From Candidatus Syntropharchaeum caldarium (GTDB taxonomy: Archaea; Halobacteriota; Syntropharchaeia; Syntropharchaeales; Syntropharchaeaceae): DNA of 64,000 bases. The stretch is taken from positions 39,777-103,776 of the forward strand of contig LYOS01000002.1 of NCBI GenBank assembly GCA_001766815.1, given 5' to 3'. The stretch's first letter is position 1. Each line of letters opens with the position of its first letter. Made by a program: the position numbers and the translations under genes. Shown here one piece after another: positions 34,647 through 57,427 of the stretch. The notes beneath the pieces were generated by a model that saw only the letters and a list, made by a program, of their open reading frames with translations, did no database searches and was not told the DNA's origin.

Positions 34647-35381
34647 TTATGGGTAGGTATAACTTTCCACATAGGCGTTTTCGTAGCCAGACTCTGTCAC
34701 GTTGTCACCGAGTGCCTGGAAGTTATCGACTGTCCACTCGCCATCCTCATCCTCTTCGGCATCGAAATCAAGGACAACATTCTTCGTCCATGAGATGTTG
34801 ACACCAACGCGGGTATGACATCCAATGCATGCCTCGTTCGAGTCGATCATAAGGTCATCATCGATCGCCTGCTGGATGAATGCGTTGTGTGCGGCCTTCG
34901 TCCCATTTCTGCCACCGGCATCATAGGAGTACTGGTAAGGATCGTTTGTCTCATCGCCGTTGTAATCACCAACACCATCTGGCTGATCGAATCCACCCGC
35001 GTGTGGGTAACCACCGAGCCCATCATTTCCATACTCATGGCAGATCATACATGCGATCGTCTCTGCTGCGTGCGAGGTCGTACCTGGGGTTGAACCTGAG
35101 GTATCACCTGATGCAACACCTGTTGGCTTCTGCACCTGTGAGGAGTTCACCCTGTGACAGTCACACCCAGGGGATGCAAGGCCTTTGTGCACACCATTAT
35201 CAGAATCGATCATCTCTGCGTTGATATCGCCATGACACTTCACACAGGGTAGCTGGTTTCCATCATCACTCAGGTTATACCAGCTGTGCTGTCCACTGAA
35301 GAGTGCTGCTGTCTGTGGGAGTGCGAATATTCCGATTGCTACGATTGCAACCAGTAGCAGTCCAGTTGTATTCCTTCTCAT
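34647..35381 (-). CDS. membrane-anchored multihaem c-type cytochrome (3 CxxCH + 1 CxCH)
   Basis: N-terminal TM anchor. CVKCH, CMICH, CIGCH plus 'GCDCH'. GGAGGTGA 5 nt upstream. Paralogue of 42871..43566. Confidence 0.85.
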   Translation of the reverse strand: MRRNTTGLLLVAIVAIGIFALPQTAALFSGQHSWYNLSDDGNQLPCVKCHGDINAEMIDSDNGVHKGLASPGCDCHRVNSSQVQKPTGVASGDTSGSTPGTTSHAAETIACMICHEYGNDGLGGYPHAGGFDQPDGVGDYNGDETNDPYQYSYDAGGRNGTKAAHNAFIQQAIDDDLMIDSNEACIGCHTRVGVNISWTKNVVLDFDAEEDEDGEWTVDNFQALGDNVTESGYENAYVESYTYP

Positions 35382-37620: not shown

Positions 37621-39189
37621 TCAGATAATGCCACTTTTCAGTGCGTATTCGATGCCTGTGTCAGTATCTCCGGTGAAGATCGCCTTGCCCTTATCCATTA
37701 CCGTAACCCTGTCACACACGAGCCGTACAAACTCAAGGTCATGGCTCACGATAAGAAACGTGGTCTTATGTTCGTTGCGACGGTTAATAATAGAGTTGGT
37801 TATCTGGTACATTGTCATCTCATCCAGTGTGCCTGTTGGTTCATCCAGTATCATTATCTTGGGGTCCTTGAGGATAATCGATGCAAATATTATCCGATGC
37901 TTCTCTCCCTCGCTAAGCTCATCGGGATATCGTTTCAAAATTCCCTCAATTCGTTCTTCACTAAACCCAACAAGCTCAAGGACGTCATAAATTTTCTCCT
38001 CTAAGATCTCTTCCGGCACTCCTGGTACAAATCCCTGCATATTTCTGTAAACTGTCTGGTATGCGGATAGCCCATATTCCTGGTGAAGTATGGCGATCTT
38101 TTCTTTGACACGCCCCCTTTGTATGCCACGTTCACGCATATCCACACGTTCACCATCCAGTCGAACTGTGCAGACACCTTCAAATTCGGAACTGTCACCA
38201 TTGATAATTGTAACAAGTGTTGTCTTACCTGCACCGCTATGTCCCAGAATCCCGTGTATCTCGCCTTCATAAATATCGAGCGATACGCCATCCAGTGCTT
38301 TTATAACACCCTCATCCACCGTGAAGTATTCCCTGCGAAGATCTCTGCACTGAATTATTGGTTCACCTTCAAAGTTAACAACCTGTTTCTTCGACAGACG
38401 TCGTTCAGCGATGAAACGTTCCATTACCTTGCTTGTCTCTCCCTCAAAGACTGCCTTTCCTTCTATAAGCAATATCGATCGCGGGGCCACCTCAGGTATA
38501 TACGATGTCAGATGTGACGCGATGAACGTTGTTCGCTCTTTCGAGATCTCTTTTATCACATCATACATCTCTTCTGATGATTTGGGGTCAAGCGTTCCCG
38601 TAGGCTCATCAAGCAGAAGCACCATCGGATCTTTTGCGATCTGTCTTGCCATCACGACTCTTTGCTTCTCACCGCCGCTCAGGTCCCGTGCAATATGTTT
38701 GATCCTGTGTTCAAGTGAGACGATCTTCACGATCTCATGTGCCCGTTCCATACGTGCATCGATCGGATAATCAGAGCTATGCAGAGCTGCAAGCACATTC
38801 TCGATAACAGACCGCATCGAATAAATCCCGGTGGCTTCCTGAAACATGATCGCAACCCGCCGTTTTATCACATCGCGCATACCTTTATCAATCTCCCAGA
38901 AGTCAACCCGCTGGAGTTCCATCGCCGAACCACAGCGCGGGCATTCTGTGCGTGATGGAGTATCAACCCGCTCGCAATTCTCACAAAAGCGAATGTTGTA
39001 GTATATATGCCCGGCTGTTGGTCTATATTCCTCCATGCCGCGCAATGTGTACATTAGTGCGCTTTTTCCAGCTCCACTTGCTCCAATAACACCGATTATA
39101 TCGTTTTCTTCCACGCTCAGGTTTATATTATCGAGTATCTTGTTGCCTCCCTTTTCGATGGAAAGATTTTCTATCTCTATAATCTTCAT
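37621..39189 (-). CDS. atwA: methyl-coenzyme M reductase system component A2 (AtwA), double ABC ATPase
   Basis: Two ABC cassettes (Walker A 'GASGAGKSA' and 'GHSGAGKTT'; signatures 'LSGGEKQRV' and 'LSEGEKHRI'). Cys4 insertion 'CENCERVDTPSRTECPRCG' after the first P-loop. Track start 39207 is TTG; ATG 39189 gives the 'MKIIEIENL' start. Confidence 0.8.
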   Translation of the reverse strand: MKIIEIENLSIEKGGNKILDNINLSVEENDIIGVIGASGAGKSALMYTLRGMEEYRPTAGHIYYNIRFCENCERVDTPSRTECPRCGSAMELQRVDFWEIDKGMRDVIKRRVAIMFQEATGIYSMRSVIENVLAALHSSDYPIDARMERAHEIVKIVSLEHRIKHIARDLSGGEKQRVVMARQIAKDPMVLLLDEPTGTLDPKSSEEMYDVIKEISKERTTFIASHLTSYIPEVAPRSILLIEGKAVFEGETSKVMERFIAERRLSKKQVVNFEGEPIIQCRDLRREYFTVDEGVIKALDGVSLDIYEGEIHGILGHSGAGKTTLVTIINGDSSEFEGVCTVRLDGERVDMRERGIQRGRVKEKIAILHQEYGLSAYQTVYRNMQGFVPGVPEEILEEKIYDVLELVGFSEERIEGILKRYPDELSEGEKHRIIFASIILKDPKIMILDEPTGTLDEMTMYQITNSIINRRNEHKTTFLIVSHDLEFVRLVCDRVTVMDKGKAIFTGDTDTGIEYALKSGII

Positions 39190-39224
39190 AGACCCACTCC
39201 GTTGCAAACTTAAATCAAGGCTTA

Positions 39225-40004
39225 TTAATTCTTTTCTGTTTTTGCAGACAATGGCATGAGCGTAGAGGTTCTGTAATATAGATCATTTATACGCGCATAT
39301 TTTGCACCCCAGAACTCAACCACCTCTTCAACCGTGCCTGCTGTACCTGTGGCAGTATAGGTAACCTCCATCCCCTCCTCAATCTCTGGTGCTGTTTCGA
39401 TGGCTTTCTCTTCGCCAGACTCGACAAAGACGATTCGTTTTATTTCCTCAGTACTTCGCAGTGGAGTGATATGCCCCCTGATGACACCTGTGATAATACC
39501 AACAACCCTACCTTTTGTGAGTCTCTTCTCTGGTAGGGGGCGAACATACTTGGTATCAACCCCCTCACGTGCCAGATCCTCGTAATCGATTGGACACTGG
39601 CATATCACGATCGATGGCTTATCGAAGAGTTTGAGAAAGTAGATTTGCTTATAAATTATATGTCGTGCGACATTGCCGTGGTGAAATATGAGTAGTTTTG
39701 AACGTTCGATCCGTTCGCGCTCATCCTCTTCCAGTTTGAATTCAACCTTCACAAAATGCTGTTCCGCCTTGATACCTTTTCCCTTACGAAGGACAAGCAC
39801 CGATGCTTTGATCCCATACGCACGCAACCGCTGTGTTATATCACAGACTGGATATGGGATGTGTCGATCCGAAAAGTCCATCGCGATTATCAGTGCATCC
39901 TCGCCATACTCATCCGAGTGCGTGCCTCCACGCGCTATACCGTAACCAAGCCCCCCTCCAAACTTTGCCCTACAGTTGACATAGTGGGCCTTTCTGCCTA
40001 TCAT
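39225..40004 (-). CDS. mcrC: McrC-like protein (MCR operon protein C homologue) with C-terminal extension
   Basis: 'MIGRKAHYVNCRAKFGGGLGYGIARGG', 'YPVCDITQRLR', 'ASVLVLRKGKG', 'PSIVICQCPIDYEDLAREGV', 'TKGRVVGIITGVIRG' follow the McrC pattern. About 60 extra C-terminal residues. AGGTG upstream. Confidence 0.75.
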   Translation of the reverse strand: MIGRKAHYVNCRAKFGGGLGYGIARGGTHSDEYGEDALIIAMDFSDRHIPYPVCDITQRLRAYGIKASVLVLRKGKGIKAEQHFVKVEFKLEEDERERIERSKLLIFHHGNVARHIIYKQIYFLKLFDKPSIVICQCPIDYEDLAREGVDTKYVRPLPEKRLTKGRVVGIITGVIRGHITPLRSTEEIKRIVFVESGEEKAIETAPEIEEGMEVTYTATGTAGTVEEVVEFWGAKYARINDLYYRTSTLMPLSAKTEKN

Positions 40005-40018
40005 AAATCACACCTTTC

Positions 40019-40879
40019 TTATACAGATGGAACACTCAGCGGAAGTTCAATGATTATATCGTCCTGTGTGCCCCTCTTTATGCTGCCAAACTCACCGAGT
40101 TTACCAAAGTAAAATTCCATCTCTCCGAGTTTCTCTGCATATTCATCATAGGATGCGTTCACTCTGAGACCGCTCATTTTGAGTACCACGTTCACACCAA
40201 ACTTTGATTCAATCTCGGTTTTTATATAGGGATAGGTTGCAGGAACATCAGGTCGAAGGCTTCCGATGATCGAGATTACACTCTCCATAAATGCACCTAT
40301 TATCCGTTTATCATCAGGATCATCGAACATCGTTGGTATCCTTGTAATAGACGGGATGAAAATCAGCTCATCATCAGACTCAAGATCTGCATAGCCTGTC
40401 ACGATCACAGGTACATTAAGCCTTCTGCAGAGTTCCATCTTCTCACGGATACAGTGCTCAAAACATCCAAACATGAAGATCGCCAGATCGTGCTCCTCGA
40501 TCATCATCCGCTCTTCCCTCATCAGAATCGCCTTTCTGCCAACGCCTCTTGCAGGTGCGATTGTGTTCACCTTTGCGCCAGCCTGCCGCAGTGTCTCAAC
40601 CGTGCTGCAGTGTGGAAAGGGTGTGTGATGAAGATTAAATGAGGGGATGATCACCGCAACTTCGATACCATAGAGCGGTACAGTGATAACCCTTCCTGAA
40701 TGCTTACGGAGAGCTGCCCGTTTACGCAGAATGTTCACCGATTCATGATCTATCATCACATCAAATTCTGCAACACCACCCATCTGGTCTATGTTCAGGA
40801 CAAAACCGCCAAGATCCTCTATGAACTCAATTATTTCGTCTGATTCAAACGCATTTCCGATATATTTTAGCGGCATCAT
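40019..40879 (-). CDS. methanogenesis marker protein 7 (Mmp7)-like
   Basis: 'EFIEDLGGFVL', 'NLHHTPFPHCSTVETLRQAGAKVNTIAPARGVGRK', 'IEEHDLAIFMFGCFEHCIREK', 'NVPVIVTG' resemble the Mmp7/McrC-related pattern as I recall it. Confidence 0.6.
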   Translation of the reverse strand: MMPLKYIGNAFESDEIIEFIEDLGGFVLNIDQMGGVAEFDVMIDHESVNILRKRAALRKHSGRVITVPLYGIEVAVIIPSFNLHHTPFPHCSTVETLRQAGAKVNTIAPARGVGRKAILMREERMMIEEHDLAIFMFGCFEHCIREKMELCRRLNVPVIVTGYADLESDDELIFIPSITRIPTMFDDPDDKRIIGAFMESVISIIGSLRPDVPATYPYIKTEIESKFGVNVVLKMSGLRVNASYDEYAEKLGEMEFYFGKLGEFGSIKRGTQDDIIIELPLSVPSV

Positions 40880-40897
40880 TTTTATTCCACGCCGTAT

Positions 40898-42679
40898 TCA
40901 GCTCAGATGGAAATACCTGTATGCATCTCCCGTATCCTCAATCTCACCGCCTTTTGAGACAAAGTCGGCGTACTTTCGATTGACAAATTCATTACAGATA
41001 GTCTCAGGATCGCCTGTCATCAGAATTTCGCCACGGTGTATCAGCAGTGCCCGGTGTGCAAGCTCCTTCACCGCATCCAGTTGATGGCTCACGAGGATTA
41101 TTGTGAGGTTGTGCTCCTTGTTGAGGGTTTTTATTGCATTTATACATTTACGCAGCGAGATAGGATCGAGATCTCCGAAAGGCTCATCGAGCAAGAGGAC
41201 CTCTGGCTTCTCCGTCATGTGAAGAGCAAGCGCAACCCGTATCTGCTCACCTGCACTGAGTTCATATGTATAGTGATCCATGAGAGAAAGAGGAAGATCG
41301 AGCGCTTCAAATATGGGTTTCATCCGCTTTTTAGCTTCGTCTGCAGGTATCGTTGGGAATAACTTCCTCAGAATCCCTGGATCAAGTTTCAGCTCCCTGA
41401 GCATGTCTTTCATCTCATCTTCTGGCAGATCTGCAAGTCTATAAAGTACATCCAGCTTCACGTCACTTAGTCCCATTTCTCTCGCCCGTTCGACCACCTC
41501 AGGCAGGAATCGCACGTCCTTTAGCCCAAGTTTCTGCTCAAAGAGGTGCAGCACGATTTCATAGTGCGTGAGCGCAAACTCCTGATGTAACGTTGAGATG
41601 TTAAGACGCGCCTTTACAGCATCATAACCATAGGTACAGATATTTGTCCAGCGCTCTTCACCACCATCGTTGATCCTGTAGGTAACCTCACCAAACTGAG
41701 GAGGTTCAAGTCCTGCAAGCAACCTGATCAGTACTGTCTTTCCAGCAGCACATGGTCCAACGAGTGCAAGTATCTCGCCTTCGTAGATATCGAAGTTGAG
41801 ATTTTTCATCTGGATCGTCTCGATAAACTTTGCACCTGATGTGGTTATCTGGTAACGCTTCCAGAGGTTGGTGAGGCGCATCTTCGGCACTTCTCGTGGT
41901 ATCGATGGCTCAACGGGTTGATCGATCTTTGCAACAAACTTTTTAATGATCTCATCTGGTTTCCCCTCATCAACCACCTTTCCTTCCTCAATCCAGAGCA
42001 CCCTATCAGCGAGAGTTTCGTGTATTTCTGGCATATGAGAGACAAATACAACAGTAACACCAGCATTCTCATTTATTTTTTTTATCGCATCAAGCATCAT
42101 CCCTCGACCAACAGGATCTATCATGGTGGCTGGTTCATCTACAAGAAGAACACGTGGATTTGCTGCGAGCTGTCTCGCAAGCAGAACACACTGCTTCTCA
42201 CCGCCGCTGAGGATATTGTAGTAGTAATACTTCTTATCCAACATGCCAACAATATCAAGAATCTCGGAGGCCCGTTTGAAGAGTCGTTTATAGTCGTTTG
42301 AACCTGTTGTAGGTATCTCTTCAAAACCTGTCTCAAGCTTTCCCAGTTTTCGCATCACATTATTTATCACACTCTCAGGCCATAGTGCAAACGAACGTTG
42401 CAGATGCAGTGCGGTTATCTTCTGGAGTTCAAGCTGTTCATTGGAATTAGAGTCAGGTGTGAGTGTGATACCATCAACCCTTACAGATCCTTCTTTAAAT
42501 GATTCCACGCCCCTTAAAATTCGCAAGAGTGTGGTTTTTCCTGCACTGCTCCTTCCTAATATACCCAGAACTTCACCCTCATCGACTGAGAACGAGACGT
42601 TCTCAAGAGCAGTGTGTTCTTTCTCAATCTTTGAGATCTGATAAGTCTTCGTTAAATTTTCTACTTCGATGATCTTCAT
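40898..42679 (-). CDS. second component-A2-like double ABC ATPase (paralogue without Cys4 insertion)
   Basis: 'GILGRSSAGKTTLLRILRGVE' (A2-like first P-loop), 'LSGGEKQCVLLARQLA', second cassette 'GPCAAGKTVL' / 'LSAGEQIRV'. GGAGG upstream. First gene of the operon. Confidence 0.75.
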   Translation of the reverse strand: MKIIEVENLTKTYQISKIEKEHTALENVSFSVDEGEVLGILGRSSAGKTTLLRILRGVESFKEGSVRVDGITLTPDSNSNEQLELQKITALHLQRSFALWPESVINNVMRKLGKLETGFEEIPTTGSNDYKRLFKRASEILDIVGMLDKKYYYYNILSGGEKQCVLLARQLAANPRVLLVDEPATMIDPVGRGMMLDAIKKINENAGVTVVFVSHMPEIHETLADRVLWIEEGKVVDEGKPDEIIKKFVAKIDQPVEPSIPREVPKMRLTNLWKRYQITTSGAKFIETIQMKNLNFDIYEGEILALVGPCAAGKTVLIRLLAGLEPPQFGEVTYRINDGGEERWTNICTYGYDAVKARLNISTLHQEFALTHYEIVLHLFEQKLGLKDVRFLPEVVERAREMGLSDVKLDVLYRLADLPEDEMKDMLRELKLDPGILRKLFPTIPADEAKKRMKPIFEALDLPLSLMDHYTYELSAGEQIRVALALHMTEKPEVLLLDEPFGDLDPISLRKCINAIKTLNKEHNLTIILVSHQLDAVKELAHRALLIHRGEILMTGDPETICNEFVNRKYADFVSKGGEIEDTGDAYRYFHLS

Positions 42680-43579: not shown

Positions 43580-46500
43580 ATGAATGAAGGAATGAAAAAG
43601 GTCAAAATCTTTATTCTCGTATTGCTTATGATCGCATCACCGTTTTCGATGCTTACTGCAGGTGCTGCTATCGATGGCTCAAAGCATGACTTCACGTTTG
43701 AGAGTGAACTTACGCCAAATGGTGCGTGTTCCGCCTGCCATGAGTGGCGTACCATGACGTGGGCACGAAACCTGAGTGAAGAGGAGGCTTATTTTAACCA
43801 GACAGAAGATCCAAACTACGTCCATGATCCTACCATAAAATGCTATGACTGTCACAGTGGCACTGCGGCAGACAATGATCCCAGTTACACGCTTTTTATC
43901 AATACAACACTTGGCAGATATATCCCGCAGGACGTTGCCTTTGATGCCAATATGAAGGGAAACGATCTATCCTATGACAGCTCACCCTCTGATGATGAGA
44001 CCGGATACTACGAGTCATCGACATCAGGCCACTACATAAAGACGAACGCAACAGGCCTGACGAATATTGAACCTGGTGATAAGCTCCCATGCACCGACTG
44101 TCATGAACCACACGAGACAGAACCCACAAATGAGGTCTTCATAAAAGGAAGCTCCGAATATCCACTTGGTGGAAAGGTTGTATCAAACTTAAAAGCAAGC
44201 ACAAACACCCGATCTGGTACTGGCACTGGACGTGAGATCTGTGCGGTATGTCATGGATACAGCGATTCAGGCATAGCTGTCAGGTTTGTTGATGTTAATC
44301 CCCTCTATGGCTCGACCGATAGGATCGTTCAGACCCCGTCAACGGTATCCCAGCATGCAGAGAATGATTCAACACCATGCACAGACTGCCACTCACATAG
44401 CACCCCGGCATCGTATTTTGTCGGAATCAGCAGCCACAACACCCACTTAACCGCCGAGTTTGGACCCAAAATATCCTCGTGCACAGGTGCCGATGGCTGT
44501 CACAGTGAGGGAAACTTCAGCCGCTTCAACGACAACCTCACACTCTCAGCGACTCATGCCTGCGATAACTGCCACAGCCCGAATGGAACATACAATGGTG
44601 TCACCCTTGCCAAGGCAAGCTGGGAAGAAGGCGTCTACAACGGCACAGACTTAAAATCAAGCAAGGAGAAGTGGTGTGCAAGCTGTCATGATAAAGAACC
44701 TGCCAGCTCTATGGGGAATGGAAGCGGTATAAACGCCCCGAATATCGTCGGGATGAATCTAAGCGGTAGCTGGCAGAGCCCCGTCGCTATTATAACAAAT
44801 CAGACGGAAAACGTCAGTGATGCAACAAACCTGCTGGATGGTGACGTTGAGACCGGTGCGAGTGTGAGTGGGGCATCCCAGATCGTCTTTGATCTTGGAG
44901 AGAGTACAGAAGTCTCCCATATCAGGCTTTACACATCTGCCAGTTCCACGGTCAAGTGGGAGGTGTACGGGAGCAATGATCTTTCAAACTGGACGAGAAT
45001 ACTCTATGGTCAGGATGTGATCTTTTCCGCTCCTGCATGGCTTACAGGTGAAGATGAGGGATGGGATGAGAGCAGGGTTGACAGGATCATACCTGTGAGA
45101 TACATCAAGCTCTACAAGAGGAGTCCGTGGCCCGTGGGGAGTGGTTCTCAGCGTGAGTTTGAGTATAAAGCAGATATACGGTATGGATACTATACCACCG
45201 GTCACAAGATTGCCTGCACCAACTGCCACAATAGAAGTAGCGCGCATATCGATGGAACCTCACAGACCTACAACACAACCCTTGATAACTATCAGACAGG
45301 TTTCAGGCTGAAATATCTTGAGGTTGAGAATGAAACCGTCCCCTCACTTGAGATACCAAGAGTCGACTGTAACTGGGGTGATTATCCAAAAACCTCAAAC
45401 GACTTTGCACTCTGTTTCTCATGCCACAACAAGTATAACCTCCTCGGGGATGCGAGTGGTACAGGCGACTACCATAAGGATCCACCCCAGACAAACTTCA
45501 GGAACAACACCACAAACGCCCACCTCATCCATCTGCAGGGAAGGGGATACTGTGGAAACAATCCTGACTGGGACTCAGACTGGAACGGCACAGCAGACTC
45601 ACCACAGAGTTGCACCGCGTGTCACAATGTTCATGGCTCTCCTGCTCCTGCGATGACAAGACACGGAGAACTTGTGAGTATCAACGATACCCTTGAGAAG
45701 GCTCCCCTCCTGAACCTGAAGTACATAAACGCAGACGGAGAGCTTGATCATAATCTCTCAGATGCCACCCAGAGTATCGGCGGAAGGACACAGTTCTATG
45801 GTGCAGGACCCGGAAACGTTGCGAAGAATAAGGTGTGTAACATGTGCCACAATGATCAGATTACCTATTATCGCACACCAGTACCTCCCACCGTAACCTG
45901 TGGTAATGGATCAGGAACAGGAGGCTGCCACAGCCCCACCGCATACTCTTCCTCTGCAGCAGGCAGCCACAATACTCATCTAACCGCACCCAGGGGACCA
46001 AACATAACATCCTGCACAGGTGCTGATGGCTGCCACAAAGGCAACCACACCGGTCTCTTCAACGATGGTTTACCGCTATCAACAACCCACAGATGTGATA
46101 ACTGCCACAGCCCGAACGGGACATACGATGGTGTGAATGACTCCACAATCGGAGCAAAACCCAACTGGGAAAATGGAGTGTACAACAATTCCACGACATT
46201 AAAGTCAGGCAAAGAGAAGTGGTGTGCAGGATGCCATGATGACGAACCGGCGTATAGTAAGGCAGAGTACAGCGAGGTCATCGTGGATAACACCGAAGCT
46301 TCTTTTGCTGGTTCATGGAGTACATCCTCTCACTCAACCGATTATGGAAGCAACTACAGATACAATGGTGCAGGTTCAGGCACTGAAACAGCAACGTGGA
46401 CACCTAACCTGCCAGAATCTGGTAATTACTCGGTCTATGCATGGTGGCCCATATATGTTTCAGGAAGAGCAACGAATGCACCGTACACCGTGTACTACAG

Positions 46501-49500
46501 CAGCGGGTCTGAGACGGTAAGGGTGAACCATAAAGCAGGAGGGGGTGGCTGGAACTACATCGGCACATGGAACTTCTCTGCTGGAACATCAGGTTACGTT
46601 GTGCTCAGTGATGATGCCGATGGAATTGTAATGGCTGATGCCATCAGATTTGTTAAAGGCGGGAATGCCACGTACGCACCCAATATCATCGGTGATAATA
46701 CAAGCTATGGGTTCTATGCAACAGGTCATGGTCGAAGCGGTGTTGTGGATTGCCTGTCCTGTCATGATTCAGATAAAACCCATATCGATGGAATTCAGCG
46801 AACGTATGAAGCAAATGAGACAACAGGTGATGCGATCACACCCTACAATAACAGCTACCGTTTAAAGGATCTTGATGGGTTGCCAGCGATGGTAATGCCA
46901 AGAAAAACAACATCCACATTTAATATGCAGGCCTACTGGCGGGATTTTAACCTCTGTTTTGACTGTCACAACAGGTTTGAGGTGCTGGGTGAAACATCAT
47001 CGGATATCAGTAACACCAACTTCTGGAATAATGATTCAAGTATCTCAAACTCACACTGGCTCCATCTCGGGATAGATAGCAAGCACTTTGACTCTGATTA
47101 TGACAGTTCTGCAGACTCACGTGAGAGCTGCATCGCATGCCACAACGTACACGGTTCGCCAACAGGACCGATGATAAGACATGGAGAACTTATAAGCTAT
47201 CCAAGTACAGCGAACAAGGAGCCTGCGCATAATTTCTACTATCTTCTCCCTGGAGATGGTTCAGCCACTGCCAGGTTTACACCCACACTTGCAGGCGGAA
47301 CATATGATATCTATGCATGGTGGAGCTCGCACTCAAACCGTGCGACAAATGCAAAGTATATAATATACCATGATGGTGGTAGCGCTGAGGTAATCGTCAA
47401 TCAGGAGGAGAACGGCTCACAGTGGAACCTCCTTGGCGAGTACAATATTACAACTTCAAACGGCACGGTCGTTCTGACATCAGATGGCGCCAACGAGTAC
47501 ATCATGGCAGACGGAATCCAGTGGAACAGAACAGATGGCGGAGATACTGTCTATGTTGATGAACCTGATGCCACCTATACTGGAAGCTGGACTGTGGAGA
47601 CCTCAAACCCAGACAAATATTACGGAGATAGCACGAGATACTACTATGCACCCATCAGGAATGCGACTGCAAACGTGAATAAGAGTACTGGCGGCACCTT
47701 CTATGTAAGCGGTGTAATCACTGCAAATCATCTCTGTCAGATGTGTCATAGCAACGTCCAGTACAACAGAGACCCGTATACCGGACCAAGAGTTCCATAC
47801 AGTGATGCAACCCCTGATAACATCTCAAACTTTGAGAGTAACACTGTAACATTCACGGCTTTCGTTACCGATGTGGATGAGAACATAGCAAATGTTACCA
47901 TCGATCTCTCAAGTTTTGGTGGTAACGTTAGCCAGAGGATGTACGATGACGGAACCCACGGTGATACCAAGGCAAATGATGGTGTGTATAGCTACCAGTT
48001 CACAGTGCCTGCAGGTGTTGATGATGGTCCAAGGAGTATCACAGTCACCGCAACAGACGATGATGGTAATAGCGGTGAAGGTCTGATCGATCTTACCGTC
48101 TATCAGCCAGGCGCACTGATCATCGATGATGAAGATGCAAGCTTCACCGGAACATGGGGAGAATCCACGGCAGACGAGACGACGTATGGAACAGGATACC
48201 GCTGGCATGCTTCAGGCACCGGGAGCAATACAGCAACGTGGAGTGTCAACATCACAACCGCCGGTAACTACACCGTCTACGCACGATGGGTTACAGGAAG
48301 CAACCGTGCTACAGATGCACCCTACACGATTAACTATGAAGGAGGCAACGAAACAGTAAGGGTTTCACAGCGGATAAAAGGAGGAAAGTGGAACCGTCTT
48401 GGCAACTACTACTTTGACGTCGGCGAGTACTCGGTCGTTCTCACAGATGATGCTGATAACTACGTTATAGCTGATGCGATAAAGCTTGAATCTGAAGCCC
48501 CTCCAGCTTACCACCCATGGCCAATCGCCGACAATCCCGATGCTGAATACAACGGAACAGGATGGTATACTGGAACAGCCGATAGCGGTTATTATGGCTC
48601 AGACTTCTACTACCATGCCTCAGGCACAGGAGAAAATACCGCAACATGGACACTCGCAGTTCCAGAAGCTGGAAAGTACGATGTGTACGCATGGTGGGCA
48701 GACGGCTCAAACCGTGCAACCAATGCACCCTATATGATTAACTACGAAGGAGGCAGTGAAACAGTAAGGGTTTCACAGAAAATAAATGGAGGAAAGTGGA
48801 ACCTGCTTGGGACATATTCATTCAATGCAGGTAACTATTCAATAGTACTCAGTGACGATGCAGATGGATTCATCATTGCCGATGCAGTGAAGTTTGAGCT
48901 TAACCAATCTGTATGGCTCACCCCTTCCTCAATCCAGTGCACAAACCTCACCAACGCTTCACTCCTGATCGATAACAGCACATCAACTGCCAACGCGCTT
49001 GATACCGGAGATGAACAGTATGTGGTCTTTGATCTTGGTGCAAGATACACCGTTCCATCGATCAAGATGTACACTGATGGTAGCGGCAACTACACATGGG
49101 ATGTCTATATGGGGGATAACATATCTGATCCTGCCTGTTGCAACCATTCAAGCTGGGGCACGCCTGTCCTTGAGAACTGGACTCCCTCTACTTCGGGGTG
49201 GAACGAGGTCAACCTGACAACACCCGCCACAGCGAGATACATAAAGCTCATGCGAAACGATACAGGTGATGATCTTGCCGCAGACAGCCTCTATGAGTTC
49301 ATGTTCGACCCACCAACGGCAACGCTCACCTTTGAACTCCACTCATACGCTGATATGCATATCTATGACCCGGAGGATCGCCATCTCGGGATGAACTACA
49401 CGACAGGCGAGATCGAGAACCAAATTCCCGGAGCAGTATATGACTTCGGTGATGTCCAGACTGCTACCCTGCCAAAGCTTGCAGTGGGGGAGTACAGGGT

Positions 49501-50482
49501 GATACTCAAAGGAACGGGGACAGGTGGATATGAACTGACCGTCACGGGCGAGGATGATGATGGTGTACTCACCAGTGAGACCGTTGCTGGAAATATCACA
49601 GCAGGTGAGATCCATGATGCAACCGCAGCGGTTAACACCACAGACATCACAAACATCACGATAGCACTCGAAGATGAGCCAGAGCCAACGATCAATGCAG
49701 ACGGAGTTGATAATGTCACACTCGCTGATCTCTATCCTGATATCGATGAGGTTGATATCGACCCCCTCGATCCTGAGACGATCGATACCACAGGGATGCC
49801 AGATATTGCCATTCACACCGCCTACATGGTCAACGCCTCAGGAGATGGTGAGTACACACTGAGGTTTGAGGATGTGGAGAACGCTGAGCTTATCACTGCA
49901 GTCTATAAGATCAATGAAGAGGGTGAATGGATCGAGCTTCCAGCAGTGATCAATGGATCGAGAGTTGAGGTTACGATGGAAGCAGGTGATCCACCGGTTA
50001 TTTTTGCATATCCAGCACCAGAAACACCGACTACAGATGACACAAACACCGCATCAACAGGTGGTAGTGGTGGTGGGGGCGGCGGAGGTGCAGGCCCGAA
50101 GGACTCAGATGGTGATGGTGTACCCGATCGTCAGGAGCAGCTTGATGGGACAGATCCTCTCAACCCTGATACAGATCATGATGGACTGAACGACTTTGAG
50201 GAGCGTGTGGCAGGAACAGACCCGAACAATCCTGATACCGATGGTGACGGAATAATCGATGGTGAAGATCCGGATCCAGCGATTATGAACTTCACACAGA
50301 AGGTGAAGAAGACCTTCTCTGATATTTCAGATACCATCTTTAGATCGGGTTCAGAGAATGCGCCGGTACCATCTTCAGAGAGCGGTGCAGAAGAGAAGAC
50401 GCCAGGGTTTGGAAGCTTTGCCTGGATCGTAGCAGTTCTTGCTATGGGGTATCTGGTAAGAAGGGAAAAAGTTGAAAAATAG
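43580..50482 (+). CDS. giant secreted multihaem c-type cytochrome with discoidin-like and golvesin-C-like domains, TSP3 repeats and PGF-CTERM anchor
   Basis: GGGGGG 6 nt upstream and a signal peptide. 17 CxxCH, 2x CTGADGCH and 1x [11 protein letters not shown], all within about the first 1390 aa. Poly-Gly linker, 'DSDGDGVPD...DTDHDGLND...[14 protein letters not shown]', and terminal '[27 protein letters not shown]'. Confidence 0.9.
48134..48900 (+). repeat. tandem duplication (period 408 nt) inside the giant cytochrome gene
   Basis: AACCGTGC at 48302 recurs at 48710. The GAAACAGTAAGGGTTTCACAG...GGAGGAAAGTGGAAC block is nearly identical in both units. Each unit encodes one about 136-aa golvesin-C-like domain. 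Confidence 0.8.
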
Positions 50483-50503: not shown

Positions 50504-51814
50504 TTAAAATATCTGCTGTGGAGGAGTGTTAGCTCCTCCCGGTGTTGTATTCTCAAAGATTGCAAAGTCGTTGCTATCAACGTCTGTATCCATGCCATCG
50601 GGGTATCTGCCTGCAGACGCACCATCTTCTGGTGCCTCAGCATTGTCTGAAACGTCGCCATCATCGAAGTCACCGTATGTAACTCTATCGATCACATTCC
50701 CGCCATTTTTCAGGATGATGGTATCTCCGCCATTGTTGAGTCCGAACGAGAAATCAGTGGACTTGTTCAGCAGCAAGAACCCATTTGCAGGTATTGTTTT
50801 TCCGTTTAGACTTGCAGGTGAAGCAGTGTTATCCTCGATCGTCCAGTCATCAAGCGAAATATCCTCGTCCATCAGGTTGTAGAGTTCGATCCATTCTGAA
50901 TCACCTGGTAAAGGATCTGAAAGAAACTCATTCACAACAACCTTCGGGACAGCATCACCCGCTTCGATCGTAAATGTCCCATCAACCACCCTATGTGTGA
51001 TCTCATCCACACCGTCTGTGAGTGATATAACCGTAAGATCGAGTGGGCTTGTGTCACCAATAGCCCCAACTGCTTCAAAGGTAATCTGAGCAAAGACCAC
51101 ATCGCCTGTAAGGCTCGTTGGGAAGTTGAGGGCTGTGTACTGGATAGATCCAGCGCTGTTGTTGATATCTCTATATAGCGGGAAGTTGAACTCGCCATCG
51201 GCAACATCAAGCACCTGCACGACATCTGGGTCGAAGTTCAGGATGATGTTTGCTCCCAGTCCCTGGTAGAGGTTCTCGATCATGATCGGAACTGTGGTAG
51301 TCTCACCTGCTTCACAGCTTAGATTCTCTATCGATACGATCGTATCAAGCACGGTAAATGTCCCGTCAACCACTGTATGCGTGATCTCATCCATGCCGTC
51401 TGTGAGTGATGTAACCGTAAGATCGAGCGGGCTTGTGTCACCACCCTCACCAACTGCCTCAAAAGTTACCTCTGCAAAGACCACATCGCCTGTAAGGCTC
51501 GTTGGGAAGTTGAATGCCGCGTACTGCACATATCCTGCCTCATTATCGATCTGGCTATAAACCGGGAAGTTGAAATCACTTCCATCTATATCAAGCACCT
51601 GCACGACATCTGGGTCGAAGTTCAGGATGATATTTGCTCCCAGTCCGCCATCAAGATTCTTGATTATGATTGGAACGGTCACACTCTCGCCTTTGCCAGC
51701 AGCCACATCCTCGATCGAGATGACCGTCTCTTCGTTTGCAGCTGCTGTAATTACAAGAGCTGATGCTACAATGAGTATGGCAACCACAGATGCAGCCAGT
51801 TTATGCCTCATCAT
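50504..51814 (-). CDS. secreted protein with two cohesin domains and a lamin-tail (LTD) domain
   Basis: Signal peptide. Two 128-aa units 'GE..TVPI.I.NL..GLGANIILNFDPDVVQVLD...LTGDVVFA..TFEAVG..GDTSPLDLTV.SLTDG.DEITH.VVDGTFT'. Then 'VVVNEFLSDP..DSEWIELYN...ISLDDWTIED....GGDTIILKNGGNVIDRVTYG'. Confidence 0.75.
   Translation of the reverse strand: MMRHKLAASVVAILIVASALVITAAANEETVISIEDVAAGKGESVTVPIIIKNLDGGLGANIILNFDPDVVQVLDIDGSDFNFPVYSQIDNEAGYVQYAAFNFPTSLTGDVVFAEVTFEAVGEGGDTSPLDLTVTSLTDGMDEITHTVVDGTFTVLDTIVSIENLSCEAGETTTVPIMIENLYQGLGANIILNFDPDVVQVLDVADGEFNFPLYRDINNSAGSIQYTALNFPTSLTGDVVFAQITFEAVGAIGDTSPLDLTVISLTDGVDEITHRVVDGTFTIEAGDAVPKVVVNEFLSDPLPGDSEWIELYNLMDEDISLDDWTIEDNTASPASLNGKTIPANGFLLLNKSTDFSFGLNNGGDTIILKNGGNVIDRVTYGDFDDGDVSDNAEAPEDGASAGRYPDGMDTDVDSNDFAIFENTTPGGANTPPQQIF
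50960..51727 (-). repeat. tandem duplication (period 384 nt) = the two cohesin modules
   Basis: CCGTAAGATCGAG at 51031 recurs at 51415. Long near-identical nucleotide stretches occur in both units. Confidence 0.8.
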
Positions 51815-51825
51815 GGTAAACCACC

Positions 51826-52737
51826 TCAGCGAAGCAGTTCATAGCCAGCAATCCCGTTAATATGTGATGCCAGATAGACCGCATCGAGCAGGTTGACAAC
51901 ACCGCTGCCATCAACGTCTGCAATTCTCTCGTTCAGGTCATATCCAGGGACCCCGAGTGCATAGCATCCAAGATACACAACGTCATCCTCATCCACATCA
52001 CCATCATCATCGACATCGCCGTTCTTTTTCACAGTGAGCTCAACACTGACCGATGTCTCTGAGAGACCGGGTGCATTTGTTGCGTTGACTGGCAGGAGAT
52101 ACGTACCTGGTGTGGTTCCATCACTTGCATTTGTTACAATTGTGTAAACACCTCCGCCAGTATCAGTCATCACTGCTTCACTATCTCCACCTATCTGAGA
52201 TAGATCGATCGTAACCGAATCGATAGCGCAGATATCGGTGACAGTAACAGATAGCTCTGCTTCTTCTCCCCAGAGAGGGGTATCATCCGTATCGTCAGGG
52301 ATTATCGCAGGATTTGCAGATGGATCTGTCACAAGTGGTGGTGCAACTCCGGTCAGATCAACTTTTCTCGGTGGCTGCATGCGCCCCCATTCTGCAGTCT
52401 CCTGTGCAGTCATCACCCTTCCATCAGGTAGCGTTATCACGAATGTAATTATCTTTCCACGATCATATAGCGTGCCTGTAACCGCCAGATAATTGAGATT
52501 GTTTCCATATTCTCCTTCAATACCTACTGTTGTAGTTCCTCTGAGTTCACCATCGATATACGCCTCTATGATTGTATCTGTGGGCGCGTCAACACCGTTA
52601 ACGCTCACATTTCCCCAGAATTTATTTGGTAGTGCTGGAGGAGGGGAAACCGCTGTTGCTGCTATCACACCAAGCAATAAGAGCAGGCTAATAATAAGAA
52701 TGCCTCCAGTTACCTTTTTCGTTACTTCTTTTTGCAT
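51826..52737 (-). CDS. secreted dockerin-domain protein
   Basis: Signal peptide 'MQKEVTKKVTGGILIISLLLLLGVIAATAV'. C-terminal dockerin with two Ca-binding loops 'DVDDDGDVDEDD' and 'DVDGSGVVNLLD'. ATG 52737 follows GGAGG by 7 nt (track start 52797 less likely). 11 nt upstream of the cohesin gene. Confidence 0.7.
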   Translation of the reverse strand: MQKEVTKKVTGGILIISLLLLLGVIAATAVSPPPALPNKFWGNVSVNGVDAPTDTIIEAYIDGELRGTTTVGIEGEYGNNLNYLAVTGTLYDRGKIITFVITLPDGRVMTAQETAEWGRMQPPRKVDLTGVAPPLVTDPSANPAIIPDDTDDTPLWGEEAELSVTVTDICAIDSVTIDLSQIGGDSEAVMTDTGGGVYTIVTNASDGTTPGTYLLPVNATNAPGLSETSVSVELTVKKNGDVDDDGDVDEDDVVYLGCYALGVPGYDLNERIADVDGSGVVNLLDAVYLASHINGIAGYELLR

Positions 52738-53014
52738 ACACATGCCTCCATTCCTCGTGGTGGCCAACCTACATCTCTTCAAAAGCAGTCGCATCAAAAT
52801 GACAAAATGCCATAATTATTTGACATTTCTTGTACTGTTGGACTGCTATATGACCACCAGAAGCGCATCATCGTTTATACTATTTAAAACTATCGATCTC
52901 AAATATCGTTGTTCTGATGTGAATTTGACAGATGAATAAAAATACAAAAAGAACAAATAAGTCAATCATGGAAGTAATGATAAATTTAAATTGATAAGAC
53001 CCTGAACTGGATTA

Positions 53015-54012: not shown

Positions 54013-56214
54013 CTATCCTATATAAGCGTTGGCTTCCACTGATCTCCTGCTGCCCCTGAAAATGCGTTCCATTCGCTCATAGAAGTCACGAGCATTCTCA
54101 TCCATCGTTGGCTTGACAATTGACAGTGCCTCTATAAAATGCCTCATCTTCACGCTGGTGGCGTCAAAATCCTCTCTCAGCGCTATAAGTCCTGCTTCTG
54201 TGCATAACGCCTCAATATCAGACCCCAGATAATCTTCTGTTAGATCTACAAGCTCACTGAGATTGACATCATCTGAAAGCGGCATAGAAGCAGTATGTAT
54301 CTGGAATATCTGCCTTCGATCCTCTTTTGATGGTGGCGATACAAAGATGATCCTGTCAAACCTACCAGGTCGCAAGATGGCAGGATCAATTGCATCATAG
54401 GATCGGTTCGTTGCAGCAAGCATAACAACTCCTTCAAGCCCCCTGATTCCATCCATCTCCGTTAGAAGCTGGTTCACAACCCGTTCTGATGTCTGTGACC
54501 CATTCATGCCTCTGGCGGGTGCTATTGCATCAATCTCATCGAAGAATATTATAGAGGGTGCAGCCTGCCTCGCCTTCCTGAATATCTCCCTTATTCCGCG
54601 TTCTGATTCTCCGAGCCACTTTGACAAGATCTCAGGACCATTGACCGCGATGAAGTTTGCAGATGACTCATGTGCGATAGCTTTGGCAATGAGTGTCTTG
54701 CCGCAACCGGGCGGACCGATCAAGAAGATGCCACCTGAAGTTTTAATTCCCATCCGTTCAAGATGCTCGGGGTATTTGATTGGCCACTCAACCATCTCAA
54801 TAAGCTTCTTCTTAACATCTTCAAGACCCCCAACATCCTTCCAACCAACCTTTGGCGTCTCGATAAGAACGTCTTTTATTATCGATGGTTCGAGATCGTT
54901 CAAAGCCATCTTGAAATCTTCGGACGTTACAACCAGTTCTTCAAGCCTCTCTTCAGGTATTGAATCGTCTTCAAGCTCGATCCCTGAGAGGAATCTTCTC
55001 AAAGCACACATCGCAGCTTCTCTGCAGACTGCCTCAAGATCTGCCCCGACATACCCGTGCAGCTTTTCCGAGAGCTTCGCAAGATCAACATCCTTCCCAA
55101 GCGGCATATTGCGGGTATGGACCTGTATGATCTCAAGGCGATCCTCATAATCAGGTACCTTGAGTTCGATCTCCCTATCAAATCTGCCAGGACGCCTCAG
55201 TGCGGGATCGATCGCGTTCAACCTGTTTGTCGCTCCGATCACAACGATCTCACCACGATCCACCAGCCCATCCATGATCGTTAGAAGCTGCGCAACCACC
55301 CTCCGTTCGACTTCTCCCGAAACTTCCTCGCGTTTTGGGGCAATTGAATCTATTTCATCAATAAAAATGATAGAGGGAGCATTTTCACGCGCTTTTTCGA
55401 ATACTTCTCGAAGGTGTTTCTCGGATTCACCGTAATACTTTGATACGATCTCCGGTCCTGCGATATCGAAGAAACTTGCGCCTGCTTCGTTAGCCACAGC
55501 TTTTGCGATCAGGGTCTTGCCACACCCGGGGGGACCATGCAGAATCACGCCTTTTGGGGGTTTCACGCCAAGTCGGTTGAATACCTCAGGGTGCTTGAAC
55601 GGCAGCTCTATCATCTCTCGGACTCGCTGTATCTCAGTTTTCAATCCACCAATATCCTCATAGGTGATTCCAGATAGGTTAAAATCTGTTTCAGCCTCGA
55701 TCGCGTCGGTGAGAAGTTCAACCTCTGTATCTGCTGTCACAACAACCGCGCCATCTGGTTCGAGATCGCGGACAACAAATGGCAGAAACTCACCAAGCGT
55801 TGTGTTACTCATTACAGGGATAATGTCCCCCTTGCAGAGCGCACGTTTCATGATCTGAGCATGTACAAGTTCTGTAACGTTCTTTCCACCAAAGACAACG
55901 TGACTTCCTTCAATTGGGGCAAGTTTGACACGAATTGCATTATTGATTTCCACTCGCCTCAGAACAACCCGCTCTCCGATCGCGACATTTGCATTCTCAC
56001 GAGTGTAACGATCGATCTTCACGATTCCTTTCTCCCAATCCTGTTTACTGAGCCTTGAAAGTCGTGCAACCGTCTTTCGTTTCCCCTCAATCTCGATAAC
56101 ATCCCCATAAGAGACTTTTAGATTGATCACGACATCGGGAGATACAGCTGCTCGCCCTCGCTCAAGATCTCTCGGATACGCCTTTGATACAATAAGATCT
56201 ACTTCTTCCTTCAT
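54013..56214 (-). CDS. cdc48: CDC48/VCP-type AAA+ ATPase
   Basis: N-domain plus two AAA modules (Walker A 'GPPGCGKTL' twice; 'IIFIDEIDS', 'IIFFDEIDA'). Track start 56220 is GTG; ATG 56214 follows GAGGGGTGA. Confidence 0.95.
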
Positions 56215-56216
56215 TT

Positions 56217-57266
56217 TCACCCCTCAAACAAACTCTTCTGATAGCTTTTTATTCGTTTAACTGCATCCTCTGCTATCGCCGGATTTATCTCGTACCCAGC
56301 ACCATCCCGTTTCAAATCCCTTGCAGCAACCAGAGTCGTTCCTGAGCCCAGAAAAGGATCAAGCACCGTCTCTCCGATGAAACTGTATGCCTTTATTAGC
56401 CTGTAAGGCAGTTCATAAGGAAATGGTGCAACATGATCCCGTCTATCTCCACTTCCCTCTGGATTTATCAACCACACATCACTCTTCTTAAGCGAGAGCC
56501 AGAACTCTTTATCGAGCTTTGATGCTTCCTTTGCTTCAGGAGTGAGGTGTGCGTACTTTCTATAACCTGCTGGAGATGGCTTCTCAAACTCAAGGATAAA
56601 CTCATGGGCATGATTCAAAAGGATACCACCAGGATAGGGGTACGTCCCAAAATGCGCCCTTACCGAGTTTGTCTTATGCCAGATAATATCCCGTTTGAAG
56701 ATGAATCCGATCCTCTCACAGAGGTCGATCGTTCTTCCCACAAGATTTAAAGTTTTAAAACTCCCCTCTGTCCTTATCGGCAGGTTCATGATATTGATAA
56801 ATGCCTTTCTTCCGGGCTGTAAAACCCTGAAGACCTCCTCCCAGACATTGCTGATCTCATCAAACCATTCATCCAGGTCATGAATATCGCCAAGATCGCT
56901 CTCTATAGGCTCTCTGGAGTACATCTTTGCATTAAAATACGGTGGAGAGGTTACCATTAAGTGTATCGAGTTATCCTCTATCTCAGACATCACCTGTGCA
57001 TTCCTGACATAGATACGTTGACTGGTCCCGTTGACCTCAATGACGCTGGTTTCGCCGAGCACACTGCCTGTTTCATTCCTGCTAAACCCCTCGACTTCAA
57101 TTTTCTGTAACGCATCAAGTGTGAATCGATATTGTCCACTGGCTGATCTGTACGTCTCTATGGCATTTCGCTTAACAAGCTCATGGAGGTTACTCACCGA
57201 TATTCCAAGATATTTTGCAGCTTCTCCTGATGATAGGTAACTTCTATTCCTATAATCTGTTATCAT
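56217..57266 (-). CDS. beta-class N4-cytosine/N6-adenine DNA methyltransferase with N-terminal excisionase/MerR-type HTH
   Basis: HTH 'LSSGEAAKYLGISVSNLHELVKRNAI'. Motif IV 'TSPPY' precedes motif I 'DPFLGSGTT'. Track start 57296 is GTG; ATG 57266 forms an ATGA overlap with the upstream small ORF. Confidence 0.8.
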   Translation of the reverse strand: MITDYRNRSYLSSGEAAKYLGISVSNLHELVKRNAIETYRSASGQYRFTLDALQKIEVEGFSRNETGSVLGETSVIEVNGTSQRIYVRNAQVMSEIEDNSIHLMVTSPPYFNAKMYSREPIESDLGDIHDLDEWFDEISNVWEEVFRVLQPGRKAFINIMNLPIRTEGSFKTLNLVGRTIDLCERIGFIFKRDIIWHKTNSVRAHFGTYPYPGGILLNHAHEFILEFEKPSPAGYRKYAHLTPEAKEASKLDKEFWLSLKKSDVWLINPEGSGDRRDHVAPFPYELPYRLIKAYSFIGETVLDPFLGSGTTLVAARDLKRDGAGYEINPAIAEDAVKRIKSYQKSLFEG

Positions 57267-57427
57267 CGCTTTATGACTATTTTTATCTCTTTCCACTCTT
57301 TATCAACGCCATTGAGTTCCCCCACAAAGCCGCCAATAACGCCAAGTGTCAGTCTTCTAACAAATGGATTTGTATCAATCTCCTGTCCGTCAGCAACAAT
57401 CGTAACCTCAATATCCTTCTCATCCAT
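57263..57427 (-). CDS. unannotated 54-aa ORF between moaA and the methyltransferase
   Basis: Below the track cut-off. 'MDEKDIEVTIVADGQEIDTNPFVRRLTLGVIGGFVGELNGVDKEWKEIKIVIKR'. GAGGGGGAG 5 nt upstream of the ATG; the stop overlaps the methyltransferase ATG. Confidence 0.35.
   Translation of the reverse strand: MDEKDIEVTIVADGQEIDTNPFVRRLTLGVIGGFVGELNGVDKEWKEIKIVIKR

Follow-up and report, generated by a model that had tools for sequence, protein, structure and literature searches.

The window analysed here, a stretch of 64,000 nucleotides on contig LYOS01000002.1 of Candidatus Syntropharchaeum caldarium, contains a gene for a giant multihaem cytochrome c, and the subject of this report is a set of three expanded haem-binding motifs within its product. 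Pfam searches of the 2300-residue protein identified four Golvesin_C domains (2.5e-127), Cytochrome_C7 (3.7e-14), Paired_CXXCH_1, Cytochrom_c3_2, F5_F8_type_C_2 and TSP3_bac, and the protein includes NedA-like galactose-binding domains and TSP3 repeats. The matches to Cytochrome_C7 (PF14522; 52.7 bits against 24.8) and Cytochrom_c3_2 (PF14537; 37.0 against 25) lie above the curated gathering thresholds. As read from the translation, the protein begins with a signal-peptide-like N-terminus and ends in a PGF-CTERM-like C-terminal anchor, and the former implies that the protein is exported across the membrane to where haem c is attached. The sequence contains 66 N-x-S/T sequons, and an exact-sequence look-up returned no record of the protein.

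A census of haem motifs in the open reading frame (ORF) gave 17 canonical CXXCH sites, two CX5CH sites, both reading CTGADGCH, and one CX8CH site. The three expanded motifs are all in frame within this single ORF on the forward strand, and each presents two cysteines followed by histidine. All 20 Cys-His dipeptides of the protein have a partner cysteine at a spacing of 2, 5 or 8, and 40 of its 45 cysteines are used by CXnCH motifs. Composition alone predicts about 0.025 occurrences of C-x5-C-H for this protein; chance co-occurrence of the motifs was rejected on the strength of the family-wide column conservation described below. The residues inserted between the cysteines, T-G-A-D-G in CX5CH and G-N-G-S-G-T-G-G in CX8CH, are rich in Gly, Ser and Asp. 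The initial annotation of this DNA had located SCTGADGCH twice and CX8CH once at the coordinates in Table 1, and the translation agrees, with the serine of SCTGADGCH lying one codon upstream of the start given for it. Five cysteines fall outside haem motifs (residues 597, 658, 1787 and 1853-1854). Cys597 and Cys658 are confined to the first copy of the duplication described next and may form a disulfide, and a Cys-Cys pair lies within the C-terminal galactose-binding-like region.

The two CX5CH motifs occupy equivalent positions in an internal duplication, in which residues ~270-716 (copy A) align with ~783-1222 (copy B) at 37% identity (BLASTP, E = 7e-82). Over the four-haem module with which each copy begins, identity rises to 58%. 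Of the 56 best-conserved codons, 40 specify the same residue in copies A and B; 17 of these 40 residues are written with different codons, and nucleotide identity is 70%. Recent gene conversion between the copies was rejected on account of these codon differences, and since so many identical residues are encoded differently, the identity of the motif in both copies reflects selection rather than recent copying. The shared context of the CX5CH copies and the old internal duplication, both proposed in the initial annotation, are thus borne out by alignment. The CX8CH motif of copy B has no expanded counterpart in copy A; both BLASTP and MAFFT place it, CH on CH, over a canonical CTDCH.

Both copies contain four haem motifs and an invariant HxxH in a conserved order: haem 1 (CXnCH), S-H-x-T-H, haem 2 (CXnCH), haem 3 within T-x-V-C-D-x-C-H-S-P-x-G, and haem 4 within W-C-x-x-C-H-D. 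The CX5CH motifs occupy the haem-2 sites of the two copies and CX8CH the haem-1 site of copy B (Table 1).

Table 1. Features of the giant cytochrome gene and its neighbours, in window coordinates.
Feature	Position	Strand	Details and basis
Giant multihaem cytochrome c gene	43580..50482	+	2300 aa, 20 CXnCH; ORF translation and Pfam
Signal-peptide-like N-terminus	43580..43666	+	By eye from translation
PGF-CTERM-like sorting/anchor signal	50402..50479	+	By eye from translation; no hidden Markov model match
Four-haem module, copy A (aa 261-387)	44360..44740	+	CTDCH, SHNTHL, CX5CH, CDNCH, CASCH; hmmsearch, alignments
CTDCH, haem-1 site, copy A	44378..44392	+	Counterpart of copy B CX8CH; BLASTP, MAFFT
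SHNTHL, copy A (His286, His289)	44432..44449	+	Family-invariant columns; candidate distal haem ligands
CX5CH no. 1, CTGADGCH, haem-2 site, copy A (Cys301/Cys307/His308)	44480..44503	+	Invariant alignment columns
CDNCH, haem-3 site, copy A	44561..44575	+	Signature T-x-V-C-D-x-C-H-S-P-x-G
CASCH, haem-4 site, copy A	44675..44689	+	Signature W-C-x-x-C-H-D
Four-haem module, copy B (aa 768-903)	45881..46288	+	CX8CH, SHNTHL, CX5CH, CDNCH, CAGCH; hmmsearch
CX8CH, haem-1 site, copy B (Cys774/Cys783/His784)	45899..45931	+	Alignment; unchanged in orthologues L001 and L002
SHNTHL, copy B (His797, His800)	45965..45982	+	Alignment
CX5CH no. 2, CTGADGCH, haem-2 site, copy B (Cys812/Cys818/His819)	46013..46036	+	Alignment
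CDNCH, haem-3 site, copy B	46094..46108	+	Motif census
CAGCH, haem-4 site, copy B	46223..46237	+	Motif census
Pentahaem cytochrome, 231 aa	42871..43566	+	13 nt upstream of giant gene; five CXXCH; Pfam Cytochrom_c3_2, Cytochrome_C7
McrC homologue	40019-40879	-	Pfam
Second MCR_C+DUF2098 protein	39225-40004	-	Pfam
Two double-ABC ATPases resembling component A2	40898-42679, 37621-39207	-	Pfam
Cohesin and lamin-tail-domain protein	50504-51814	-	Immediately downstream of giant gene; Pfam
Dockerin-containing protein	51826-52797	-	Pfam
244-aa ORF	34647-35381	-	Three CXXCH; no Pfam match at E <= 1e-4

We compared these sites across the module family by building a profile from the two copies and scanning 1.84 billion representative proteins exhaustively with HMMER. 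This recovered 559 module-bearing proteins at E <= 1e-3, 470 of them at E <= 1e-10. The best 150 of the 559 contributed 190 module instances to a profile alignment, and 178 of these instances span the haem-2 site. Every one of the 178 has Cys...Cys-His at this site: 161 are CXXCH, with one further CDCCH, five are CX3CH, one is CX5CH (CSGAGGCH) and ten are CX6CH, so that about 90% are canonical. When 90 full-length modules were aligned independently with MAFFT, only 13 columns proved invariant, and each belongs to a haem-motif cysteine or histidine or to HxxH. They comprise the second cysteine and histidine of haem 1, the two histidines of HxxH, the triad Cys301/Cys307/His308, and the Cys-Cys-His triads of haems 3 and 4. 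The first cysteine is conserved in 90 of 90 modules at haem 2 and in 99% at haem 1. The initial annotation had proposed an alignment with homologues as the check on both cysteines and the histidine; all three are retained in 178 of 178 instances and supply three of the 13 invariant columns.

The spacing at haem 1 is also variable. Among the 90 modules it is n = 2 in 76, n = 3 in two, n = 4 in nine, n = 5 in two and n = 8 in the giant cytochrome itself, and the relative P0014 has a Gly-rich CX9CH (CSDTGAGDGFCH) immediately preceding SHVTH. When all 1972 Cys-His dipeptides of the 150 homologues were scored by the distance to the nearest upstream cysteine, n = 2 accounted for 1818, n = 3 for 38, n = 4 for 68, n = 5 for eight and n = 6 for ten; n = 7 occurred twice, n = 8 never and n = 9 once, with 0-1 at each spacing from 10 to 30. 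Spacings 3-6 therefore stand well above background in this set.

The CX6CH forms at haem 2 share the loop pattern C-x-[SGTV]-G-[DN]-x-[GA]-C-H in ten representatives, each from a separate cluster (P0008, P0040, P0042, P0058, P0072, P0082, P0085, P0088, P0089 and P0100), one of which derives from an Acidobacteriota metagenome-assembled genome (MAG). Together the CX5CH and CX6CH forms are spread over at least 12 distinct clusters defined at 50% identity. In the multi-module proteins P0008, P0040 and P0072, CX6CH is present in the first module only, which hints at a specific role for its loop. Few relatives carry names. Those that do are called 'cytochrome c3 family', 'choice-of-anchor X domain-containing', 'SBBP repeat-containing' or 'right-handed parallel beta-helix repeat-containing', or are labelled hypothetical, and they come from MAGs of Chlorobiota, Bacteroidales, Nitrospiraceae and Acidobacteriota. 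Other routes recovered little: a word-indexed protein search with a 121-residue module query gave no match and a 34-sequence alignment query gave only two proteins, a metagenome scan with the patterns SHNTHLTA and SCTGADGC confirmed no relative, and NCBIfam holds no model specific to the module.

These data suggest that the two CX5CH motifs are, in all likelihood, genuine c-type haem attachment sites, because the position they occupy is homologous to a CXnCH motif in every module instance that spans it and its triad is invariant. The initial annotation had held CX5CH to be functional, as a haem site or otherwise as a disulfide or metal site, and the homologue alignment falls on the haem side. 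We consider CX8CH a probable haem attachment site as well, with somewhat less confidence, because its counterparts are the canonical CTDCH in copy A and the haem-1 site of the family. It is the weakest of the three motifs and is lineage-specific, its support consisting of this positional homology and the one CX9CH analogue. Judged from the homologues, the pattern fits haem sites with an insertion-tolerant loop between the cysteines and not a site of changed function.

This allows us to hypothesise how such sites arose and operate. The expanded motifs would have derived from ordinary CXXCH through insertion of a short Gly-rich loop between the cysteines. After Sec-dependent export of the apoprotein by way of its signal peptide, the archaeal Ccm (cytochrome c maturation) machinery would bond both cysteines to the vinyl groups of the haem, forming two thioether bonds per motif. 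The motif histidine would serve as the proximal iron ligand, with His286 and His289 among the distal ligands. The additional loop residues would bulge to the surface, leaving the Cys-Cys-His triad in place, and the loop would probably alter the solvent exposure or redox potential of its haem. The 20 haems could then form a conduit within a glycoprotein at the cell surface, in contact with the extracellular matrix or the partner cell; with its PGF-CTERM tail, which resembles a lipid anchor, and its sugar-binding domains, the protein may act as a cell-surface conduit carrying electrons from ethane oxidation to a sulfate-reducing partner. With regard to maturation, Allen et al. reportedly found in 2009 that Ccm of Escherichia coli attaches haem to engineered CXnCH motifs (n = 2-6) of cytochrome b562 and does so without a dedicated lyase.

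Several points weigh against haem attachment at the expanded motifs. The engineered n = 5 and n = 6 variants in the same study are said to have given heterogeneous, partly oxidised products, and by analogy haem may be attached imperfectly to loops of this kind unless special factors assist. The initial annotation had mentioned a possible need for dedicated lyases; the 64-kb window contains neither a Ccm nor a Ccs gene, no ORF with a WWD domain was found in its six frames, and no maturation gene is linked to the cytochrome. The support for CX8CH is thinner, since the motif is absent from the 150 homologues and occurs only in three near-identical orthologues. The AlphaFold (AF2) model of the module, in which haem is not represented, has a predicted local distance difference test score of 82.5, with ~88 over the motif-holding residues 41-60.

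We weighed three other explanations, which are doubtful even when taken together. The expanded motifs could be degenerate sites that escape haem lyase processing and instead form structural disulfides (Cys301-Cys307, Cys812-Cys818 and Cys774-Cys783), so that the chain of haems would be interrupted. In an exported protein, cysteines separated by 5-8 residues are able to pair, spacings of 5 and 8 do not appear in published lists of natural haem motifs (PMC11492766) or in the searchable literature, and CX8CH is confined to one narrow lineage. A disulfide has no need of the adjacent histidine, yet this residue is invariant, and the same position is a haem site in ~90% of relatives, and its loss would break a conserved four-haem chain. 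The persistence of CX5CH and CX6CH across so many clusters, and the retention of the motif by both paralogous copies through long divergence, also argue against degeneration. We therefore regard disulfides as unlikely.

Alternatively, haem might be held by a single thioether to the second cysteine, with the first left free or used for redox sensing or cross-linking. Single-cysteine haem motifs are known from the cytochromes c of trypanosomatids and euglenozoans, a longer loop may put the first cysteine beyond reach of the 2-vinyl group, and aberrant products were reportedly obtained with engineered n = 5 and 6. Such an arrangement would not lead one to expect the near-complete conservation of the first cysteine noted above, which should be dispensable, and both cysteines are used in the haem sites of CX15CH and CX17CH. 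These natural motifs bind haem despite far longer loops (PMC11492766), and we consider single attachment slightly less probable again than a disulfide. A non-haem metal site, in which Cys-Cys-His, perhaps with the loop Asp, holds Zn, Cu or Fe, is highly improbable. Metals are often bound by Cys, His and Asp, and a D/N is conserved in the CX5CH and CX6CH loops, but the residues are homologous column for column to canonical CXXCH sites, no fourth conserved ligand particular to the expanded variants was seen, and the loop Asp gives way to Asn in an orthologue and to Gly in P0017. Each of the three explanations leaves at least one observation without a cause, be it the invariant histidine, the invariant first cysteine or the column-for-column homology with canonical sites.

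The closest loci to the giant gene came from a genome scan that yielded two only, 'Candidatus Methanoperedenaceae archaeon GB37' GoM-Arc1_E37 (LR991653.1) and a MAG labelled Syntrophoarchaeum. At 94-98% identity they are too near for a test of conservation. The orthologues of the giant protein in these loci are 94-95% identical to it and keep all three expanded motifs; in L001 the second CX5CH copy reads CTGANGCH, a D to N change in the loop that leaves the cysteines and histidine unaltered. The gene is a mosaic between strains (L002 5221-10344 and L001 5215-10548, against window 43580-50482). In the L002 orthologue, residues 1-891 and 1779-2297 are shared at 95-98% identity and a different segment, with a CX4CH motif (CGGSMCH), takes the place of the middle part; in L001 the ORF stops after 1777 residues. 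These differences point to shuffling of domains, or else to differences in assembly, within the sugar-binding and cytochrome repeats. One member of GoM-Arc1 is the thermophilic ethane oxidiser 'Ca. Ethanoperedens', whose cytochromes are highly expressed and which hands electrons to 'Ca. Desulfofervidus' (PMC7175092).

The pentahaem cytochrome just upstream of the giant gene has equivalent ORFs in both L001 and L002 and is probably co-transcribed with the giant gene. Directly upstream of the cytochrome genes, an Mcr/Acr-associated cluster occupies 37621-42679 on the reverse strand, and its members are listed in Table 1. The cohesin and dockerin genes downstream recall systems of anaerobic methanotrophic (ANME) archaea and, by analogy, may tether surface proteins. 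The 244-aa ORF may encode another small multihaem cytochrome. An N6/N4 DNA methylase with HTH_17 (56217-57296, reverse strand) adjoins a Cdc48-type AAA ATPase (54013-56220); these are unrelated to the haem motifs.

The reading of the expanded motifs determines how the giant cytochrome is counted. A count restricted to CXXCH gives 17 haems and breaks both four-haem modules, and including the expanded motifs brings the count to 20 haems and two complete modules. Haem number and continuity of the chain decide whether it can serve as an electron conduit. Motif-based surveys of extracellular electron transfer should accordingly allow expanded spacings. The module is compact, at ~130 residues, and offers a test system for the loop lengths tolerated by archaeal Ccm and for the effects of such loops on haem in syntrophic ethane-oxidising consortia.

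A further possibility, which we regard as speculative and on balance improbable, is that natural CX5CH, CX6CH, CX8CH and CX9CH constitute an uncatalogued set of c-haem motifs whose loops are functional rather than merely tolerated. We raise it because a recurrent signature (C-x-[SGTV]-G-[DN]-x-[GA]-C-H, here C-T-G-A-[DN]-G-C-H) is found at one fixed haem of a widespread module. With functional loops, that haem could be tuned or exposed so as to serve as the point of entry to, or exit from, the module, and maturation could depend on a specialised CcmF paralogue of alkane-oxidising archaea. If so, surveys restricted to CXXCH would systematically undercount haems in this module family.

Sequence searches of the PDB placed the module only distantly. 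A 34-sequence profile gave weak, repeat-driven matches to MtrA, MtrC, c7-like proteins and NrfA, and searches with the two-sequence profile and with the first 1440 residues found no cytochrome relative, returning only a xanthan-lyase C-terminal domain, which corresponds to the Golvesin_C region, and CBM32-like domains. By these searches the module is without a close relative of solved structure. The weak similarity to MtrA/MtrC/OmcA and to cytochromes c7/c3 (PDB 6r2q, chains A and C, with 6qyc and 8k9e; E = 2e-5 to 3e-4) stems from runs of CXXCH, and the haem-2 column of the module aligns with their real haem motifs.

Two established groups were considered as possible homes for the giant cytochrome and set aside. 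In MccA, dedicated CcsA1 or Sir-type lyase genes adjoin the structural gene. An MccA-like assignment was rejected, as the spacings here are 5 and 8 and not those of CX15CH/CX17CH and no lyase gene is adjacent. Lengthened haem motifs together with CcmF paralogues have been described in ANME archaea by Chadwick et al. 2022 (PMC9012536). The multihaem cytochromes (MHC) of ANME types A, B and C resemble the present system in their proposed electron transfer to a syntrophic partner and in having cohesin/dockerin genes nearby. An assignment to these types was also rejected, since Pfam detected no S-layer (DUF1608), peptidase-M6-like or pectin-lyase domain in the giant cytochrome; nor was an adjacent CcmF2 paralogue, a trait of ANME MHC type B, found, the window containing no CcmF-like WWD motif.

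The OmcZ-type nanowire cytochromes of Geobacter, Methanoperedens and Borgs have a CXnCH (n>2) loop described as solvent-exposed (bioRxiv 2023.08.01.549754). They likewise represent extracellular electron-transfer cytochromes with an expanded inter-cysteine loop in alkane- or methane-oxidising archaea. We detected no relationship of sequence or fold between the giant cytochrome and OmcZ; its loops are shorter, and it is an anchored surface protein of 2300 residues rather than a polymerising nanowire subunit. The engineered cytochrome b562 variants were artificial and matured in a bacterial host, whereas the motifs described here occur naturally and are conserved, and the range reportedly tried does not extend to n = 8.

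Natural haem binding has been reported for CX3CH, CX4CH, CX11CH, CX15CH and CX17CH (PMC11492766), in agreement with the statement of the initial annotation that expanded CX(n)CH motifs can bind haem. We did not find natural spacings of 5, 6, 8 or 9 in that list or in the searchable literature, and their occurrence at conserved haem positions would extend the published series (n = 2, 3, 4, 11, 15 and 17). In ANME archaea, the CX4CH of MmcA is exchanged for CXXCH (bioRxiv 2024.05.23.595608). The CX3CH and CX4CH motifs of tetrahaem cytochromes c3 and Methanosarcina MmcA, and the CX11CH, CX15CH and CX17CH motifs of MccA-type octahaem sulfite reductases, likewise consist of two cysteines and a histidine with more than two intervening residues and, like those of the giant cytochrome, stand at a canonical CXXCH position in an exported multihaem protein. 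Expanded CXnCH motifs are thus a known class, and those of the giant cytochrome are a modest extension of a known theme.

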